The notes under the pieces: generated by a model
Told to the model about the DNA's origin: nothing
Seen by the model: the letters and a program-made list of their open reading frames with translations, nothing else
Database searches by the model: none
Shown: in pieces, positions 41,556 through 63,420 of the stretch
Layout of the letters: the number at the start of each line of letters is the position of its first letter
How positions within the stretch are numbered: position 1 is the first letter of the stretch
Assembly: GCA_963720265.1 (NCBI GenBank)
Contig: CAVRET010000002.1
Location: forward strand, 931-64,930
Direction: 5' to 3'
Source of the DNA: an uncultured bacterium
GTDB lineage: Bacteria; Patescibacteriota; Saccharimonadia; UBA4664
DNA: 64,000 nucleotides
Translations under genes and position numbers: made by a program

Positions 41556-41977
41556 TCGCACACTATCCCGTAGGATATTTGGTGGACCAGCGAACTCGGC
41601 ACTCATGTGAGTGTCAGATTTTGTGAATGGGTGCTTCCTTGCGCGTATGCGCCGGTAGCCACAAACTGCTAGTCAAACCTTGCAAAAAAGTCAATCGACC
41701 GATTAGTACACCTCGGCTAAACACATTACTGTGCGTACACCTAGTGCCTATCAACCTGGTAGTCTTCCAGGGGTCTGATTGGGAAATCTAATCTTGAGGT
41801 AGGTTTCGCGCTTATATGCTTTCAGCGCTTATCCTGTCCGAACATAGCTACCCGACGATGCCCTTGGCAGAACAATCGGTACACCAGAGGTTCGTTCACT
41901 CCGGTCCTCTCGTACTAGGAGTCACTCCTCTCAAATTTCCTTACGCCCACACCAGATAGGGACCGAACTGTTTCACA

Positions 41978-42034
<57 letters not shown>

Positions 42035-42058
42035 GGTGCTTCCCCCCCAGGATGCGAC

Positions 42059-42502
42059 GAGCCGACATCGCTGTCGATTCCACAATTACTTGTGGCCCAG
42101 ACTATATCTTATCCCTGCTCTCCAGACTTAGGCTGATAGGCCATATCTATGAGTTGAGTCTTGCAGGGCTCGGCGTGTTAGCCCACTTTACGTGGACTCT
42201 CATCTTTCGAATCAGTCGTTACGGGGTCATCAGTCAATTTATACTTGAAGCAAGGTAACGCATATGGAGCAATCTGCTGCCAACTTCGAACAAAGCGTTC
42301 TTGCGATTGCCTTGTTTGCGTAGCGTACCATCGCCTAGCAGACTGCCTATTAGGACTTCCTGCTGAATTGACGTTAGACTTCCCACGGTATTGTCCTTGT
42401 TTGTATCATACCGAACATTCACCGTACAAACAATAGGATTTCACCGTTATAAGCCGAATTTTTGGTACAGGATTACTCCTGTAGCACCCCGATATTGATT
42501 CT
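42059..42502 (-). mobile_element. group I-like intron in 23S at the site homologous to E. coli 2499/2500 (GGCACCU|CGAUGUC), carrying a degenerate LAGLIDADG ORF
   Basis: Exon homology breaks after GAGCCGACATCG (plus coordinate 42058) and resumes at AGGTGCCAAAC (42503). The inserted RNA starts after an exon U and ends in G, consistent with group I splice sites. Confidence 0.65.
42234..42422 (-). pseudogene. LAGLIDADG homing endonuclease remnant (62 aa)
   Basis: Translation ...QEVLIGSLLGDGTLRKQGNRKNALFEV... contains a LAGLIDADG-type motif. It is too short to be an intact enzyme. Confidence 0.5.
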
Positions 42503-43183
42503 AGGTGCCAAACAGCGCCGTCTATGTGAACTATTGGGCGCTATAAGCCTGTTATCCCCAGGGTAACTTTTGTCCGTTGAGCGCTGCAGATTCCACATTC
42601 TAGATTGCAGCGGATCACTAACTCCTACTTTCGTACCTGCTCGGCTTGTAAGCCTCACAGTCAAGCTGGCTTCTGCGTTTGCACTATCGATACGATTTCC
42701 ATCCGTACCTAGCCAACCTTTGAACGCCTCCGTTACTCTTTAGGAGGCAACCGCCCCAGTTAAACTACCCACCAGACACTGTTCCAGTGCCGGAATTCGC
42801 GTACAAGGTAATCTAACAAGACAAGTCGCATGCATATGCGTGAGTTAGGAAAAAGTTTCCATTTGAACTTGTTCTACTTGTCTTGTCAGCATTGTCCGCA
42901 AATTGCGGCACTGGTTAGGACAAAGTTACAGCCAGGGTGGTATTTCACATTTCGGCTCCGCCAGAGCTAACGCTCTAACTTCACAGCCTCCCACCTATTC
43001 TACACAGGCTATAACTCGGCCCAATGCCAAGTTGTAGTAAAGCTCCATGGGGTCTTTCCGTCTTGGTGCGGGTAAACGGCATCTTTACCGCTATTGCAAT
43101 TTCACCGAGTCCCTCGTTGAGACAGTGCCCATATCGTTACGCCATTCGTGCGGGACGGAACTTACCCGCCAAGGAATTTCGCT

Positions 43184-43970
43184 TTATGTCAAGTTATTGG
43201 TATCACCAACCCGTCTGGAGATCCTTGGTTCTCGCTGACGGCTGCATGTCGCCATGCAGTACGGACTCTATCTTTACCGCTGTCGCGGCATCCGGCGTAT
43301 TAGCCTCTGAGGATTCTTATCAGATCCTGCCTGGATTTTTGCCTATTCATTGTTTGCGTAATCTCAGCTATTTCGATCAATCCCTCTGGGGTTTTATGCA
43401 CTCCAGAGTTGATTAACGAAACGCAGTGCGCAAATTTTTGAAAATCATGTTGCTTATGCGTTCGCAATTAATACAAGCTGAAGAAGGGTATGATCCTTTC
43501 GATCAAGTCTTCACGCCTTTGTACCACGTATCGATACATTGCTTCTGTATGGTTATCGTAACGTCGATTAATCACGACGGTACCCACTCCAAAGAAATGT
43601 TGCAATCGATGCAAGCACTCGATGCTCTTGGCACCTTGCGCAACTGCGAATTCATGGGCAACTTGGTAGCCAGTTCTGTATCCACGATGAGTTTTAGTAG
43701 TCAGTTGCCTGACAAACCCAATTGAGAAGCATCCTTCTCCGTCTACAAAACCAATAACCCAGCCAAGCTCGATAAGCCTTTCCTGCTGATTGTCCGCACC
43801 TGTCGCATTGTCAGTCATGTTGGCATTATACCGAACAAAGTCCGTATAATAAACATTGCTAGCGCAGGATTCTCGGGGTTTCCAGCATATAGCCAGATTT
43901 TCTCTCAAAACCTCTATGGCAAGAGGAAAACGAGAGGTGGTCTTACACCACACTAAGGCAGCTTGTGTTC
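43184..43970 (-). mobile_element. intron-like intervening sequence in 23S at the site homologous to E. coli ~1917 (GGUCCUAAGGU|AGCGAAAUUCC), encoding a LAGLIDADG endonuclease
   Basis: The exon sequence CAAGGAATTTCGCT ends at 43183 and ACCTTAGGAC resumes at 43971. The joined exons reproduce the universally conserved GGTCCTAAGGTAGCGAAATTCC. Confidence 0.65.
43468..43953 (-). CDS. LAGLIDADG homing endonuclease (intron-encoded)
   Basis: ...RLIELGWVIGFVDGEGCFSIGF... is a canonical single-motif LAGLIDADG. Possible start at the internal Met at 43818 (MTDNATG...). Confidence 0.8.
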   Translation of the reverse strand: MWCKTTSRFPLAIEVLRENLAICWKPRESCASNVYYTDFVRYNANMTDNATGADNQQERLIELGWVIGFVDGEGCFSIGFVRQLTTKTHRGYRTGYQVAHEFAVAQGAKSIECLHRLQHFFGVGTVVINRRYDNHTEAMYRYVVQRREDLIERIIPFFSLY

Positions 43971-46507
43971 ACCTTAGGACTCTTATAGTTAGAGCCGCCG
44001 TTTACTGGGGCTTCATTTCAGAGCTTGCACCCCTCCACTTAACCTTCCAGCACCGGGCAGGCGTCAGTCCGTATACATCCTCTTTCGAGTTAGCACAGAC
44101 CTGTGTTTTTGATAAACAGTCGCATGGGCTCTTTTGCTGCGGCCCTCCGAAGAGGGCAGACCTTATCCCGAAGTTACGGTCGCTGTATTGCCGAGTTCCT
44201 TAACGAGGGTTCTCTCGTACACCTTGGTCTACTCGACCCGAGCACCTGAGTCGGTTTGCGGTACGGGCGGCTATGCCTATTAACCCCAAAGCTTTTCTTG
44301 TCGGCTTGGCTCGCGTGAATCAACCCTTGCGGGCCTTTCATTCGCGTCTCACCCGGATTGCTCCGGACTACCTGCTTAGACGGATATAGCCAAAAATCCG
44401 CTCACGCTACCACGCCGCGTCATCTGGGGGAACAACATCGCCGGTACGGGAATATCAACCCGTTGTCCATCGCCTACGCTACTCGCCTCGGCTTAGGCCC
44501 GACTAACCCTGGGACGATAATCGTTGCCCAGGAAACCTTGCTCTTACGGTGGCAGGGATTCTCACCCTGCTTAAAGTTACTTATTCCAGCATTCTCACTT
44601 CCCCGCGCTCCACCAGACCTTCCGGTCTGACTTCACCGCCCGAGGAACGCTCCTCTACCACGCATGCGCTTGCGCGCACACATCCGCATCTTCGGCGCTA
44701 CGCTTGAGCCCCGTTATATTTTCCGCGCCGAATCACAATTGACCAGTGAGCTGTTACGCACTCTTTAAATGCATGGCTGCTTCTAAGCCCACATCCTGGT
44801 TGTTTATGCGTTCCGACATCGTTTCCCACTTAGCGTAGACTTGGGGGCCTTAGATGGCGATCTGGGCTGTTTCCCTTTTGAGCGACGAGCTTAGCCCCGC
44901 CGTTCTGACTGCCACAGTAATCTCTCCCGGTATTCGCAGTTTGCCAAGGATCAGTATCCTTGCGGACCATTACCTAAACAGAGCTCTACCCCCAGGAGGT
45001 AGTATGTGACGCTAGCCCTAAAGCTATTTCGAGGAGAACCAGCTATCTCCGAGTTCGATTGGAATTTCTCCGCTAACCACAGGTCATCCAAGCATTTTGC
45101 AACATGTCCTGGTTCGGTCCTCCACGCCGTTTTACCGACGCTTCAACCTGCCCATGGTTAGGTCACCCGGTTTCGGGTCTAATCCTGCGTACTATGTCGC
45201 CTTATTAAGCCTCGCTTTCACTACGGCTCCGTCAACTGACTTAACCTAACGCACGCAAAATTAACTCGCTGGATCGTTCTACAAAAAGCACGCCGTCACC
45301 CCATTGCTGAGGCTCCGACTCATTGTAGGCACATGATTTCAGGTTCTATTTCACTCCCCTTCCGGGGTTCTTTTCGCCTTTCCCTCACGGTACTTGTTCG
45401 CTATCGATCGTAAAGTATATTTAGCCTTGGAAGGTGGTCCTTCCAGATTCAGTCAGGCTCCAGTCTATCTCCCGACCTACTCGAGAATAGAGATATAAGG
45501 GCTGAAGTTTTTCGTGTACGGGGCTTTCACCCTCTTTGGCGCAAGATTCCGCCTGCTTCCACTAATCTTCAACTTTCTTACCTTACCGGCGCGTGACAGC
45601 GCAAACCGTCGCAATAAAGATCGCTTTCTTTGATTACTCTCGCAAAGCGCTCTTTATTGGTCATCTCTATCTCACAACCCCTCATTAACATTCGCCTGTC
45701 AGCTTATTCGTGTGCGAACACACGAAAGTCAATAAGGTTTTGGCTCTTCCCATTTCGCTCGCCGCTACTAAGGGAATTGAGGTTTCTCTCTCTTCCTGTG
45801 GCTACTTAGATGTTTCAGTTCACCACGTACCCTCCACACATCCTATTTTATTCAGATATGGGTAACCGCGTATAACCACGGCTGGGTTGCCCCATTCGGA
45901 AATCCCCGGGTCAAAGCTTGATTGACAGCTCACCGAGGCTTATCGCAGCCTTCTACGTCCTTCGTCGGTACTTTACGTCAAGGCATTCATCATGTGCCCT
46001 TAAGTAACTTTCTTACTTTGTTTGACTAGCAGTTTATAACTGCCGGTCGATCGATCTCCTCCACCTCGGCAGATGGATTCGATTCGATGAAATTGTTTGT
46101 AAATCTCACGCCTTGCGGCGCTTGATTTTACCCATTCATATTCACTTCTCAAAAAACAACTCCGCGAACCGGATTGATTCTGCGGAGCTCACATAATAAG
46201 AGACAACTATTTGCGCTTAGGCGATTTCTCCGCTTACCGCTAGTTGTCTACACATATAATGCGAGCCCTCGAAGTAACTCTATTAAGATATCAGATCAAG
46301 CTTGCTCGGTCAATACCCTGAGCGCCTATTTTGCAAAGATGCCGGTATGTAATTGCGAGAAACCCGCTCCAACATCATTGCCGGAACGGGCCATACAAAT
46401 TCCTGATCACCCGGATATCTCCAGGCTCTCCACCCGCCTCGGGCGCTGCCGAGGCGGGTCATCTGGTTGGTTGTGGACGGGCGGCTTGCCAAAAAAGACG
46501 CGACGTA

Positions 46508-47069: not shown

Positions 47070-47146
47070 GGGCTTGTAGCTCAGCTGGTCAGAGCGCGTC
47101 ACTGATAATGACGAGGTCGCAGGTTCGAGCCCTGCCAAGCCCACCA
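47070..47146 (+). tRNA. tRNA-Ile (anticodon GAU)
   Basis: GGGCTTGTAGCTCAGCTGGTCAGAGCGCGTCACTGATAATGACGAGGTCGCAGGTTCGAGCCCTGCCAAGCCCACCA. Cloverleaf with acceptor GGGCTTG/CAAGCCC, anticodon loop CUGAUAA, encoded CCA. Confidence 0.9.
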
Positions 47147-47179
47147 TGCAATTATCCCGGGCCGATCGGCCGCCACTTT

Positions 47180-47256
47180 GGGGCATTAGCTCAGCTGGCT
47201 AGAGCGCCTGCTTTGCAAGCAGGAGGTCATCGGTTCGAATCCGATATGCTCCACCA
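47180..47256 (+). tRNA. tRNA-Ala (anticodon UGC)
   Basis: GGGGCATTAGCTCAGCTGGCTAGAGCGCCTGCTTTGCAAGCAGGAGGTCATCGGTTCGAATCCGATATGCTCCACCA. Shows the G3:U70 identity pair, anticodon loop UUUGCAA, encoded CCA. Confidence 0.9.
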
Positions 47257-49829: not shown

Positions 49830-50126
49830 ATGCCGACGAAGAGTGCCACCAAAATCTACATAAAATCCGGGTTTGCCATACCCCTCGGCCTACTTTTAGT
49901 AGCCTTAGTCTTGTCTCTCGTCGGTCTAGCAATGTACAGCTCGATGAATGCAAAGCATTCTGTGCTCGTTTTTCAGCCAGAAACTAGCATGCCCACGGGC
50001 ACTATCTCAATTGTCGGCCTCGATGGGAAGGTACGGCACTCACTTACAAGTCCCCCCAGCTCCGCTTCGTATGATCCGACCACATATTCGGTAGAAGGTA
50101 GTGCCCTTGTGCAGGGAAGTGTCTGA
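49830..50126 (+). CDS. small membrane/secreted protein, apparently truncated by IS insertion
   Basis: Signal/TM segment GFAIPLGLLLVALVLSLVGLAMY. The stop codon TGA is supplied by the first bases of the IS terminal repeat (cTGAacc). Confidence 0.45.
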   Translation: MPTKSATKIYIKSGFAIPLGLLLVALVLSLVGLAMYSSMNAKHSVLVFQPETSMPTGTISIVGLDGKVRHSLTSPPSSASYDPTTYSVEGSALVQGSV

Positions 50127-51287
50127 ACCACCCCACACTTCCTTGAGCTGCAACTAAAAAGACGACACACTGTTTTCTGTCCACTTCAAAACAAACAGGA
50201 AAACAAATATGTCGTCACCCAATATTGTACGGGGTATCCGTACTCGTATACAAAAGCAATTAATGCCCAGTGTGCCGAGCCGTTGGCGGACGCAGCTGTC
50301 GTTTGGCCTGCAGGCATACGGACTTAGAGCTTTCCAGAGCGCCAGTGGCAATGCCCGCATGGTGGTTGCCAACCCCCACACCGGTCTGCGTAAGGCAGAG
50401 CGCATGTTCCAAAACACCGCCTTTACCGACCAGCTCGGAGAGGTTTTTGACCAGCTGGCGCTCGTCAAACCACGCAGCTATGTAAATGTAGATCACTCGG
50501 ACATGCATGGGCTCACAGCCTTGGTAGGTGCCGTACAAACCCGGAAGGGCAGATCCCTCCCTTGTATGGTTGAGACCACTTACGCTCACCATATTCCTGC
50601 CCACGAGAATGCCGCTCCGCACTGGAAGAAACTCAGAGCTGCCATGCAAGCGGCCCGCCGGCAGCAGTCTTTTACCGAGCATACCGTCACTAGCCTCCAA
50701 GCCATGGCTGACCGGCTCGGCTTCTGGCCCCGACTGGTCTTTGACCGCGGTTTTGGCAACCGGTCCATTGTGACGCATCTAGCAGCAGCAAACGCTACCT
50801 TCTATGTCCGCCTCAAAGCTGGCCGCCACGTTGCATGTGACAGCGAAGTAACCGAGGTCAGCACTCTAACTGACCGGGATACCACGGTCCAGATATATGG
50901 ACTGACTCTCCGGGTTATCCGCTCGCCCAAAAGCCGGCGTGCCAAAGAGTCCTGGTACATACTCACTAACGATTTCAGAAGCAGTCGAACTAAGATTATC
51001 CGAATTTACTACCACCGATTCGAGATTGAAGAGACCTTTCGGGACATTAAACACATCTTTGAGTACAAACGCACCAGGTTAACCAAGCCGCATAACCTAA
51101 AGCTCATCTTGTGGCTGGTCAGCCTTGGCATTGCACTACTTTATCTGGAAACGAAGCCCACTAAACAAACCGTGACAAGCGCCAACCCCAAGAAGCAAAC
51201 GTCCTGGCTCCGCCAGGCCTACGAGCAACTGCAGCAGGCGTTAACCGAGCAGGTCTGGGGCGGGGTGTGAAGTGTGGGGTGGTTCAG
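50123..51287 (+). mobile_element. IS4-family-like insertion sequence, copy 1 (1165 bp)
   Basis: Terminal inverted repeats CTGAACCACCCCACACTTC (50123-50141) / GAAGTGTGGGGTGGTTCAG (51269-51287). Carries one transposase gene. No flanking direct repeat was found for this copy. Confidence 0.85.
50209..51270 (+). CDS. tnp: DDE transposase (IS4-like)
   Basis: 353 aa, ...LVFDRGFGN... and ...YYHRFEIEETFRDIKH... (the Y-(2)-R-(3)-E-(6)-K block typical of IS4-group transposases). Identical copy at 56670-57731. Confidence 0.85.
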   Translation: MSSPNIVRGIRTRIQKQLMPSVPSRWRTQLSFGLQAYGLRAFQSASGNARMVVANPHTGLRKAERMFQNTAFTDQLGEVFDQLALVKPRSYVNVDHSDMHGLTALVGAVQTRKGRSLPCMVETTYAHHIPAHENAAPHWKKLRAAMQAARRQQSFTEHTVTSLQAMADRLGFWPRLVFDRGFGNRSIVTHLAAANATFYVRLKAGRHVACDSEVTEVSTLTDRDTTVQIYGLTLRVIRSPKSRRAKESWYILTNDFRSSRTKIIRIYYHRFEIEETFRDIKHIFEYKRTRLTKPHNLKLILWLVSLGIALLYLETKPTKQTVTSANPKKQTSWLRQAYEQLQQALTEQVWGGV

Positions 51288-56652: not shown

Positions 56653-57817
56653 CTGAACCACCCCACACTTCACACCCCGCCCCAGACCTGCTCGGTTAAC
56701 GCCTGCTGCAGTTGCTCGTAGGCCTGGCGGAGCCAGGACGTTTGCTTCTTGGGGTTGGCGCTTGTCACGGTTTGTTTAGTGGGCTTCGTTTCCAGATAAA
56801 GTAGTGCAATGCCAAGGCTGACCAGCCACAAGATGAGCTTTAGGTTATGCGGCTTGGTTAACCTGGTGCGTTTGTACTCAAAGATGTGTTTAATGTCCCG
56901 AAAGGTCTCTTCAATCTCGAATCGGTGGTAGTAAATTCGGATAATCTTAGTTCGACTGCTTCTGAAATCGTTAGTGAGTATGTACCAGGACTCTTTGGCA
57001 CGCCGGCTTTTGGGCGAGCGGATAACCCGGAGAGTCAGTCCATATATCTGGACCGTGGTATCCCGGTCAGTTAGAGTGCTGACCTCGGTTACTTCGCTGT
57101 CACATGCAACGTGGCGGCCAGCTTTGAGGCGGACATAGAAGGTAGCGTTTGCTGCTGCTAGATGCGTCACAATGGACCGGTTGCCAAAACCGCGGTCAAA
57201 GACCAGTCGGGGCCAGAAGCCGAGCCGGTCAGCCATGGCTTGGAGGCTAGTGACGGTATGCTCGGTAAAAGACTGCTGCCGGCGGGCCGCTTGCATGGCA
57301 GCTCTGAGTTTCTTCCAGTGCGGAGCGGCATTCTCGTGGGCAGGAATATGGTGAGCGTAAGTGGTCTCAACCATACAAGGGAGGGATCTGCCCTTCCGGG
57401 TTTGTACGGCACCTACCAAGGCTGTGAGCCCATGCATGTCCGAGTGATCTACATTTACATAGCTGCGTGGTTTGACGAGCGCCAGCTGGTCAAAAACCTC
57501 TCCGAGCTGGTCGGTAAAGGCGGTGTTTTGGAACATGCGCTCTGCCTTACGCAGACCGGTGTGGGGGTTGGCAACCACCATGCGGGCATTGCCACTGGCG
57601 CTCTGGAAAGCTCTAAGTCCGTATGCCTGCAGGCCAAACGACAGCTGCGTCCGCCAACGGCTCGGCACACTGGGCATTAATTGCTTTTGTATACGAGTAC
57701 GGATACCCCGTACAATATTGGGTGACGACATATTTGTTTTCCTGTTTGTTTTGAAGTGGACAGAAAACAGTGTGTCGTCTTTTTAGTTGCAGCTCAAGGA
57801 AGTGTGGGGTGGTTCAG
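56653..57817 (-). mobile_element. IS4-family-like insertion sequence, copy 2 (identical, inverted) with 9-bp target-site duplication
   Basis: Same terminal repeats as copy 1. Flanked on both sides by the direct repeat AGTGATAAC (56644-56652 and 57818-57826). Confidence 0.85.
56670..57731 (-). CDS. tnp: DDE transposase (IS4-like), identical to the 50209-51270 copy
   Basis: Translation is 100% identical to copy 1 over 353 aa. Confidence 0.85.
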   Translation of the reverse strand: MSSPNIVRGIRTRIQKQLMPSVPSRWRTQLSFGLQAYGLRAFQSASGNARMVVANPHTGLRKAERMFQNTAFTDQLGEVFDQLALVKPRSYVNVDHSDMHGLTALVGAVQTRKGRSLPCMVETTYAHHIPAHENAAPHWKKLRAAMQAARRQQSFTEHTVTSLQAMADRLGFWPRLVFDRGFGNRSIVTHLAAANATFYVRLKAGRHVACDSEVTEVSTLTDRDTTVQIYGLTLRVIRSPKSRRAKESWYILTNDFRSSRTKIIRIYYHRFEIEETFRDIKHIFEYKRTRLTKPHNLKLILWLVSLGIALLYLETKPTKQTVTSANPKKQTSWLRQAYEQLQQALTEQVWGGV

Positions 57818-58410
57818 AGTGATAACATTGCAATGTAGGTCGCAACATTGCAAAATACGGCTTACCGGAACACGCAGCGAGCAGGGCCTTCGATGTATCC
57901 GGCGAACCGAACAAGCTTCCCTTGGGAGACAAGATAATCGTGGGCCAATACCGCTGGACGAATAATGTTGTGATAGTCCGCCGGAGAATTACACGTTACA
58001 TCGGAATCGCCTGGCGAATCCCTTCCGCCAAACCGCACACAGTACATAACTGTGATCATCGACACTTCTCGCGCAGGCGGGCTGAGGGATGTGGATTGCA
58101 GCTGATGGCACGCCTGCTCGCAAAGGAGCAGCGCCTCCGTCAATGTGTCGCCGAGGTAACGTACTGTGATGCCTCCGACCTCAGCTCTCGCGACCATGCA
58201 ACCCGCCTCTGCGAACAGCTAGCTCATGGCCACCCTGATATGACCACCACCGAACGAAACGATCTACTGAACTACATTCGGTGCTGGTACCAGTCCATCT
58301 GGGAAGAAGGTCCGCGTACCGGGGACCGGCTCTAAACCAGCCGATTGAGGCATCCGCAGGCCAATCATCTATGACATTGGCTTGCGGGTGCCTCTGCTTC
58401 TAAGAATAAC

Positions 58411-61954: not shown

Positions 61955-63420
<1,466 letters not shown>

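Follow-up and report, generated by a model that had tools for sequence, protein, structure and literature searches.

What fills the extra length of the 23S rRNA gene in the DNA studied here, and if its two largest insertions are group I introns, how would the one that ends in A, where a G is expected, join its exons? The window, as we call the whole stretch analysed, comprises 64,000 nt of contig CAVRET010000002.1 (positions 931 to 64,930), and all coordinates below count from its first base. It holds one 23S rRNA gene, of 4333 nt, which matches the bacterial large-subunit (LSU) model of Rfam (2925 positions) over its full length, with the excess lying in five places: two small expansions in domain I and insertions of 787, 110 and 432 nt. 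We consider it very probable that the gene carries two group I introns, both products of endonuclease-driven homing and both now in the decay phase of that process, together with one non-intron expansion. The introns are called A (432 nt, site L2500) and B (787 nt, site L1931) below. The host is most likely a bacterium of the Patescibacteria, or Candidate Phyla Radiation (CPR), as judged from the exons, whose nearest match is a metagenome-assembled Saccharimonadales genome (77.6% rRNA identity), and from a 1.1-Mb contig that encodes a protein identical to the truncated 116-aa product of intron B.

Two group I introns in one 23S rRNA gene

The host gene and the introns, with the evidence that places each, are as follows.

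41682-46014, minus strand: 23S rRNA gene (host gene), all insertions included (Rfam RF02541, 2427.7 bits, model positions 1-2925)
43184-43970, minus strand: intron B, group I, after Escherichia coli U1931 (L1931), 787 nt, starting GAACAC and ending GACAUAA (junction reading; RF00028 over the 3′ core; 78 same-site homologues)
42071-42502, minus strand: intron A, group I, after E. coli U2500 (L2500), 432 nt, starting AGAAUC and ending CGACAG, with the terminal G at 42071 (junction reading; RF00028; L2500 homologues)

Both pairs of junctions were read directly on the RNA strand. Intron B runs from 43970 down to 43184, between exon sequence ending in GUCCUAAGGU and exon sequence beginning with AGCGAAAUUCC, and intron A from 42502 down to 42071, between UUUGGCACCU and CGAUGUCGGCUC. 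The U residues at the junctions are numbers 1930 and 2499 of a 2903-nt E. coli 23S copy, which correspond to 1931 and 2500 in the standard 2904-nt numbering. An earlier reading of these letters without database searches (the sequence-only reading) had proposed two interruptions of the 23S gene at known intron sites, and the LSU alignment and the many homologues at the same rRNA sites agree with it. Its limits for the longer insertion were exact, as was its statement that the last base is A, but it placed the insertion at about position 1917, whereas the site lies between U1931 and A1932. For the shorter one it gave the correct site (2499/2500; U2500 in our numbering check) and the correct flanks, GGCACCU with its final U on one side and CGAUGUCGGCUC on the other, with G as the last intron base; the start at 42059 and the length of about 444 nt, however, included 12 exon bases.

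When each insertion was searched alone, RF00028 (Intron_gpI) matched intron A with 42.5 bits (E-value 1.4e-9) and intron B with 27.4 bits (E-value 7.7e-5), and since numerous homologues of each occupy the same rRNA sites, a chance origin of these matches is rejected. In both introns the guide sequence forms a U.G wobble with the terminal U of the 5′ exon at the 5′ splice site, within paired region P1. The earlier proposal that both are group I introns, for which a foldable core was the suggested check, is upheld by these matches and by the core folds and their covariation, for which the parts of intron A are listed here (P, paired region; J, joining segment).

42483-42490, minus strand: internal guide sequence GGGGUGCU, pairing with 5′ exon GGCACCU, U2500.G at the splice site (P1) (direct reading; minimum free energy fold; RNAalifold)
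42080-42184, minus strand: 3′ core overall (cmscan alignment; conserved in alignment A2)
42175-42184, minus strand: P7, 5′ strand
42169-42174, minus strand: P3′
42113-42168, minus strand: P8
42099-42110, minus strand: J8/7-P7′, AAGAUAUAGUCU
42080-42097, minus strand: P9

P1, P2, P3, P4-P6 and P9 were recovered in the single-sequence fold and by RNAalifold with three relatives that lack an open reading frame (ORF), with compensatory pairs at 14 of 45. Intron A is thus predicted to be a structurally complete ribozyme, with a U.G-bearing P1, P2-P9 and a terminal G. Homologues at L2500 were found in loci L001, L013, L017, L024, L030 and L078 (loci L001-L080 are genome-derived, L081-L200 come from a metagenome core scan and L201 is a metagenome contig). 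These introns exist in ORF-bearing (~800-850 nt) and ORF-less (~290-330 nt) forms; those of Actinomycetota and CPR loci have the site and the core motifs UAUAACGGUGAA, AAUACCGUGGGAAGUC, GACCCCGUAACGACUGA and AAGAUAUAGUC in common with intron A, from which they differ in that the 432-nt window copy is an intermediate that retains about 150 nt of ORF. Organellar LSU genes also carry introns near this site.

The structure of intron B is divided by its ORF, and its parts are as follows.

43960-43962, minus strand: guide, GCU part, pairing with 3′ exon AGC (P10, 3 bp)
43953-43959, minus strand: guide, GCCUUAG, pairing with 5′ exon CUAAGGU, with U1931.G (P1)
43902-43951, minus strand: two extra hairpins, P2/P2.1-like (comparison of the introns' 5′ parts; alignment A4)
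43777-43897, minus strand: 5′ core, with P4 UGCUGG/UCAGCA, P5 CCG/CGG, P5a CCUGCGC/GCGACAGG and the start of P6 (RNAalifold on 76 relatives)
43892-43897, minus strand: P3, UCUGGC
43263-43307, minus strand: catalytic core overall (cmscan alignment; covariation count on 62 relatives)
43301-43307, minus strand: P7, 5′ strand, G(A)GGCUA
43291-43296, minus strand: P3′, GCCGGA
43275-43290, minus strand: P8
43268-43274, minus strand: J8/7, AAGAUAG
43263-43267, minus strand: P7′, AGUCC
43242-43259, minus strand: P9 with a GCGA tetraloop
43196-43241, minus strand: peripheral hairpins P9.1 and P9.2
43184-43186, minus strand: P9.0, 3′ strand (U43186 and A43185, pairing with A43260 and U43261 of J7/9), and the terminal A43184 (direct reading)

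Across the 62 relatives P7, P8 and P9 are 96.7% paired, with double changes at 16 of 20 pairs and 229 doubly changed cells where 64 are expected; none of 500 shuffles reached this covariation and no slid register came close. The J8/7-P7′ sequence, AAGAUAGAGUC, is one base off the Rfam consensus AAGAUAUAGUC. P4, P5 and P5a lie upstream of the ORF in the RNAalifold structure, and we rejected the placement of P1-P6 given by Rfam, which falls on coding sequence; the model cannot span the 480-nt ORF. A guide of the GCC type with an adjacent P10 is present in nearly all 78 L1931 introns, a few of the automated calls being spurious. The nearest relative of intron B is in metagenome contig L201 (80% nucleotide identity), with the same two extra hairpins, which are missing from most relatives.

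The L1931 family is large. The intron B endonuclease has 4984 database matches at E-values of 1e-10 or below, with about 70% identity to thousands of metagenomic members, and the family occurs in at least 459 species-representative genomes of Actinomycetota, Gammaproteobacteria, CPR, Armatimonadota, Gemmatimonadota and others; an intron stands at the same 1931 site in 78 of the 80 genome loci examined. We note also that several metagenome contigs (L094, L155, L091 and L116) carry another intron-like insertion, 10-15 nt 3′ of the 1931 site. The Cbu.L1917 intron of Coxiella burnetii, known from the work of Raghavan and colleagues, is said to be a 23S group I intron with a last base other than G, in a gene that has more than one intron and an intervening sequence; it lies at 1917 and not 1931 and in another host lineage, and the non-G terminus described below is family-wide and not a single case. 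Published L1931 introns with single-motif LAGLIDADG genes, in Simkania, Thermotoga and Synechococcus, have the same site after U1931, a similar size (650-800 nt) and a LAGLIDADG_1 ORF that runs into the core (PMC1995217). In CPR bacteria group I introns with LAGLIDADG_1 genes are common in 23S genes at 1917, 1931 and 1952, those at L1931 being frequent and their ORFs sometimes degenerate like that of intron B, and large deletions are among the degenerate forms; a single-domain CPR enzyme of this type, I-ShaI (insertion site 23IS7, Shapirobacteria), cleaves its target (PMC11270868). Intron B differs from the published L1931 introns in its nonsense codon, its terminal A and its two extra P2-type hairpins, the latter common to L201 only. 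Taken as a whole, the gene is organized in the way usual for CPR rRNA genes and matches the published descriptions of their introns.

From these structures we infer that both introns splice from the pre-23S rRNA. They would leave it by two-step transesterification, with P1 holding the 5′ exon, and P10 and P9.0 the 3′ exon.

The terminal base of intron B and its family

J7/9 of intron B reads G-U-A (43262-43260), and its U43261 and A43260 pair with A43185 and U43186. Because this P9.0 pairing ends just before A43184, that base occupies the exact usual place of the terminal G (omega-G), which is present in intron A and lacking in intron B although P9.0 is there. The L201 intron has J7/9 GUU with the tail ..CAAAA, where intron B has GUA with ..CAUAA, a compensatory P9.0 change with the terminal A kept; the terminal A is therefore a feature of the lineage and not damage. 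Both splice sites of intron B are fixed by P1, with its U.G pair, and the adjacent P10. Three other assignments were tried and rejected: no sliding of the exon boundaries that regains a terminal G restores the conserved GGU/AGCG junction; if the intron ended at the G of the conserved UAAG/ACUUG slightly upstream, four to eight additional variable bases would remain in the core of the rRNA, and UAAC stands there in many relatives; and a shift of the site to 1930 for the U-ending introns was also discarded.

A last base other than G is frequent in this family. Among the 78 genome-derived L1931 introns the last base is G in 32, A in 27, C in 10 and U in 9, and the endonuclease gene is intact in 35 of the 46 that do not end in G. 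P10 averages 4.9 bp in the introns that end in A and 4.7 bp in those that end in C, but 3.1 bp where the G is kept. In the second step of splicing of intron B, A would take the position of the terminal nucleotide in place of G, and the step would probably be slower and rely on P9.0 and P10.

The guanosine-binding pair of P7 in intron B is G43305-C43264, beside the bulged A43306, and is homologous to G264:C311 of the Tetrahymena ribozyme; since the J8/7-P7 consensus AAGAUAUAGUC is, as we take it, identical in Tetrahymena, the P7 pair of the whole family can be aligned with it base for base. Michel and colleagues in 1989 and Been and Perrotta in 1991 reportedly found that altering G264:C311 changes the nucleoside accepted and that the 3′-terminal base of the intron must match. 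The terminal G is stacked in a triple on G264-C311, and P9.0 is formed by the bases directly 3′ of P7 (PMC10020454); the 264:311 pair is an exception to the sequence tolerance of P7, and swapping it destroyed activity (PMC2860135).

Alignment A3 has 56 introns with G-C as this pair, 5 with A-U and 1 with U-A, and all six altered introns end in U. We then used a pool of 168 distinct L1931 cores, made up of the genome-derived loci and 120 stretches from a metagenome scan for cores with a base other than C at the P7 position. Within it the A-U pair goes with a terminal U in 79 of 79 introns, in contrast to the free variation at positions -2 to -4; out of 2 pairs P9.0 in this class forms 1.84, compared with 0.98 after shuffling, and none of 2000 shuffles reached the observed value. 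A C-G pair goes with a terminal A in 14 of 15, and the single U-A intron ends in U. The 69 introns with the G-C pair are mixed (terminal G 34, A 23, C 10 and U 2). Among loci L001-L080 and the window, members of this class whose J7/9 begins with C have a terminus other than G in 27 of 29 cases, and those with another first base end in G in 32 of 43; the window has G at this position (43262), yet ends in A. Variants of the P7 pair and the terminal base were seen in L024-L032, L074 and L081-L200 (for example L084, L097, L090 and L093), with P9.0 covarying throughout. No correlation of the terminal base with the next P7 pair (A-U against G.U) was seen by eye in alignment A3, and a scan of viral contigs found no core of the G-C/GAUAGAG type. 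The literature searched yielded no report of natural covariation between the terminal base and the binding pair, an absence that is not proof of novelty.

The two positions that change together in the natural L1931 family are thus those varied in Tetrahymena ribozymes engineered at the guanosine site. In the sequences of the family A-U goes with U and C-G with A, whereas the engineered combination is A:U with adenosine or a terminal A, and the window intron, unlike the engineered variants, retains G-C and ends in A, so that it follows no simple matching rule. That its terminal A is one case of a family-wide relaxation and re-specification of the group I nucleoside pocket is an idea that we hold tentatively and to which we give less than an even chance. 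We treat a switch of specificity as a lead and not as a result, because shared ancestry inflates the counts and the evidence is comparative. A non-G terminus may also occur beyond the L1931 family, as suggested by the L2500 intron of a Peribacteria metagenome-assembled genome (L017:6180-7026), which ends in A (..ACCGUA before exon CGAUG), unlike the six other L2500 introns seen.

Two decaying endonuclease genes and the alternatives

Both introns would have arrived through endonuclease-driven homing, a cycle now in its decay phase, and the coding sequences concerned are these.

42234-42422, minus strand: 62-codon LAGLIDADG_2 homing-endonuclease remnant with LIGSLLGDG (Pfam PF03161)
43471-43818, minus strand: LAGLIDADG_1 endonuclease gene, codons 1-116, from ATG at 43816-43818 to the in-frame TAA at 43468-43470 (ORF list; Pfam PF00961)
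43300-43467, minus strand: in-frame continuation, 55 codons and a stop at 43300-43302, homologous to the C-terminal helices of the family (Pfam; PDB; family alignment)

The ORF of intron A matches PF03161 with an E-value of 5.6e-5 and 23.6 bits, below the cut-off of 25, and covers only profile positions 2-37 of 168; the N-terminal motif region, about the first 50 codons of a LAGLIDADG_2 gene, is all that survives. ORFs of about 200 codons stand at the same place in L017 (203 aa), L030 and L013, and none is present in L001, L078 and L024. Alignment with the three ORF-bearing loci shows that about 410 nt have been deleted in intron A and about 150 nt of ORF kept, and this partial match and deletion confirm the decayed LAGLIDADG remnant of 62 aa, with LIGSLLGDG, that had been read from the letters. 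A deletion of this size would have cut the gene to its present 62-codon stump.

In intron B the ORFs are of 116 aa from ATG and 161 aa from GTG, with LGWVIGFVDGEGCFSI (43468-43953, minus strand). The truncated piece alone scores 52.3 bits against PF00961 and 70.6 bits when read through the stop (cut-off 23.1; motif LGWVIGFVDGEG), and this match above the cut-off includes a single LAGLIDADG helix with its catalytic acidic residue. Relatives in the PDB match with a best E-value of 3.6e-29, in an alignment that crosses the stop to residue ~160. The ORF does not run uninterrupted over the ~150-residue LAGLIDADG_1 fold, since the TAA falls about 60 codons short of the family length of 177-200 aa. 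Fourteen homologues of about 70% identity, 177-203 aa long, have K, P, Q or N at the position of this codon, which is AAA in L201. Because frame and homology continue beyond the TAA, the gene has recently become a pseudogene by a nonsense mutation, provided that the base call is correct: one substitution, from AAA to TAA at codon 117, would have truncated the protein, and as this removes the C-terminal helices, the endonuclease is very probably inactive. Of the intact single-motif LAGLIDADG enzyme earlier proposed for this insertion, the single motif and the 116- and 161-aa ORFs thus stand and the intactness does not; the inactivating change that had been named as a point to look for is present, and tells against the protein but not against the RNA. 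In-frame stops before the C-terminal motif were found in only 4 of the 78 L1931 family members.

The gene lies in the P5-P6 region and overlaps the ribozyme core at both ends (43777-43818 and 43297-43318), its start codon (43816-43818) sitting within the P5 extension. We note that P5a′, P5′, P4′ and P6 encode A(D/E)NQQERL, a stretch that is invariant in the protein. The C-terminal remnant has its stop codon in the 5′ strand of P7; the window carries an additional base there (GGCUAAUAC), because of which the frame ends about 11 codons earlier than in the homologues.

Several observations weigh against two spliced introns in a CPR host. The host assignment depends on 77.6% rRNA identity to a single metagenome-assembled genome, the codon-117 TAA is known from a single assembly, both RF00028 scores are under the 50-bit gathering threshold, and intron B, with its terminal A, lacks the G required for normal exon ligation, which the A is expected to impair. 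An L1931 intron of Simkania is moreover called 'unspliced' in the title of a paper cited as reference 28 of PMC11270868. These last two points would suit a gene whose insertions are not spliced at all, but retained as expansion segments or excised by RNase without religation to leave a fragmented 23S rRNA, the group I-like core being a relic; so would the decay of both endonuclease genes and the tolerance of the same 23S gene for a 110-nt non-intron insertion and two domain I expansions. We nevertheless think this unlikely. Positions 1931 and 2500 are in the most conserved core of the rRNA, the latter in the peptidyl-transferase region, and the helices, J8/7 and the guides for both exons are conserved family-wide with compensatory changes; a relic would have lost these helices, J8/7 and guides. 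P10, which serves exon ligation only, is present, and is on average longer in the introns that lack a terminal G, and intron A is canonical in all respects tested.

If intron B does splice, both its terminal A and its TAA could still be recent damage or assembly errors in a descendant of an intron with a terminal G and an undamaged gene, which would leave the terminal base without meaning. The TAA is one substitution from AAA, assemblies derived from metagenomes contain errors, and several family members have frameshifts. For the terminal A this explanation is contradicted by L201, an independent contig of 80% identity that also ends in A and has the compensatory P9.0 change; the 46 of 78 members with other termini, most of them with intact genes, and the near-perfect tracking of the P7 pair by the terminal base in the 168 distinct sequences also speak against it. 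We regard the explanation as improbable for the two changes together, although the TAA alone may be an assembly error. It is very improbable, in turn, that the TAA is read through or recoded to give a full-length endonuclease of ~172 aa. The 55 downstream codons are in frame and conserved, as the gain in PF00961 score on reading through attests, but leftover homology of this kind is expected after a recent nonsense mutation, and the stretch is partly constrained as ribozyme core (P6′, P7 and P3′). The other genes of the window are long ORFs in translation table 11 with standard stops, which argues against a reassigned TAA, and no recoding signal was seen, none having been searched for. We know of no bacterial code that reassigns UAA.

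The 110-nt element, the rRNA gene neighbourhood and the homing cycle

The remaining features bear on the 23S gene and its surroundings.

42793-42902, minus strand: element of 110 nt inserted into a helix-79-like hairpin at its terminal loop, forming a long irregular hairpin (cmscan, 110 nt against 2 model positions at ~2238)
41441-47: 5S rRNA (Rfam)
61956-63418: 16S rRNA (Rfam)

The 110-nt element folds with -49.8 kcal/mol (z -6.96), and neither an ORF nor a group I match was found within 42793-42902. The sequence-only reading had noted an expansion hairpin of about 70 nt at 42790-42900; a long hairpin is indeed there, but its size by the Rfam model is 110 nt. By its sequence and fold the element is best described as an expansion or intervening sequence and not an intron. 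Like the RNase III-processed intervening sequences of 23S helices 25 and 45 it is a long, stable, ORF-less hairpin in a terminal loop. Unlike theirs, however, its loop is helix-79-like, and the element may be no more than an expansion segment. About 966 nt stand at the same helix-79 place in L079 (L079:4891-5857). Compared with the Rfam model, domain I has the two further expansions, of about 36 nt (45693-45728) and about 80 nt (45582-45661), on the minus strand.

The rRNA genes are unlinked, with the 16S gene 16 kb from the 23S and 5S genes, and genes for tRNA-Ile(GAT) and tRNA-Ala(TGC) lie beside the 23S gene on the opposite strand (47070-47256). Between the rRNA genes are two copies of a 1166-nt IS4-family insertion sequence (IS), 100% identical and inverted (50122-51287 and 56653-57818), and the 5.4 kb between them includes a PcrA/UvrD-like helicase gene. 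The position of these inverted, identical copies between unlinked rRNA genes suggests an IS-mediated rearrangement.

This locus adds one more documented case of CPR-type bacteria gathering mobile group I introns in their sole rRNA genes. The decay of the endonuclease genes after fixation, one by deletion and the other by a fresh nonsense mutation, is a tidy snapshot of the homing cycle, though of an already known kind. The termini may have wider consequences. Group I introns are regarded as nearly invariant in their terminal G and in the G-C pair to which it binds, and if the tentative re-specification is true, there would be natural group I introns with a pocket that recognizes U or A, and not G, for exon ligation, a non-guanosine cofactor might be used in the first step, and introns of the window's type, with G-C and a terminal A, would splice with a mismatched terminal nucleotide, aided by P9.0 and P10. 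With both positions changing together across a large natural family, there would then be ready-made test cases for the nucleoside specificity of an RNA active site and for the use of non-guanosine cofactors in nature.

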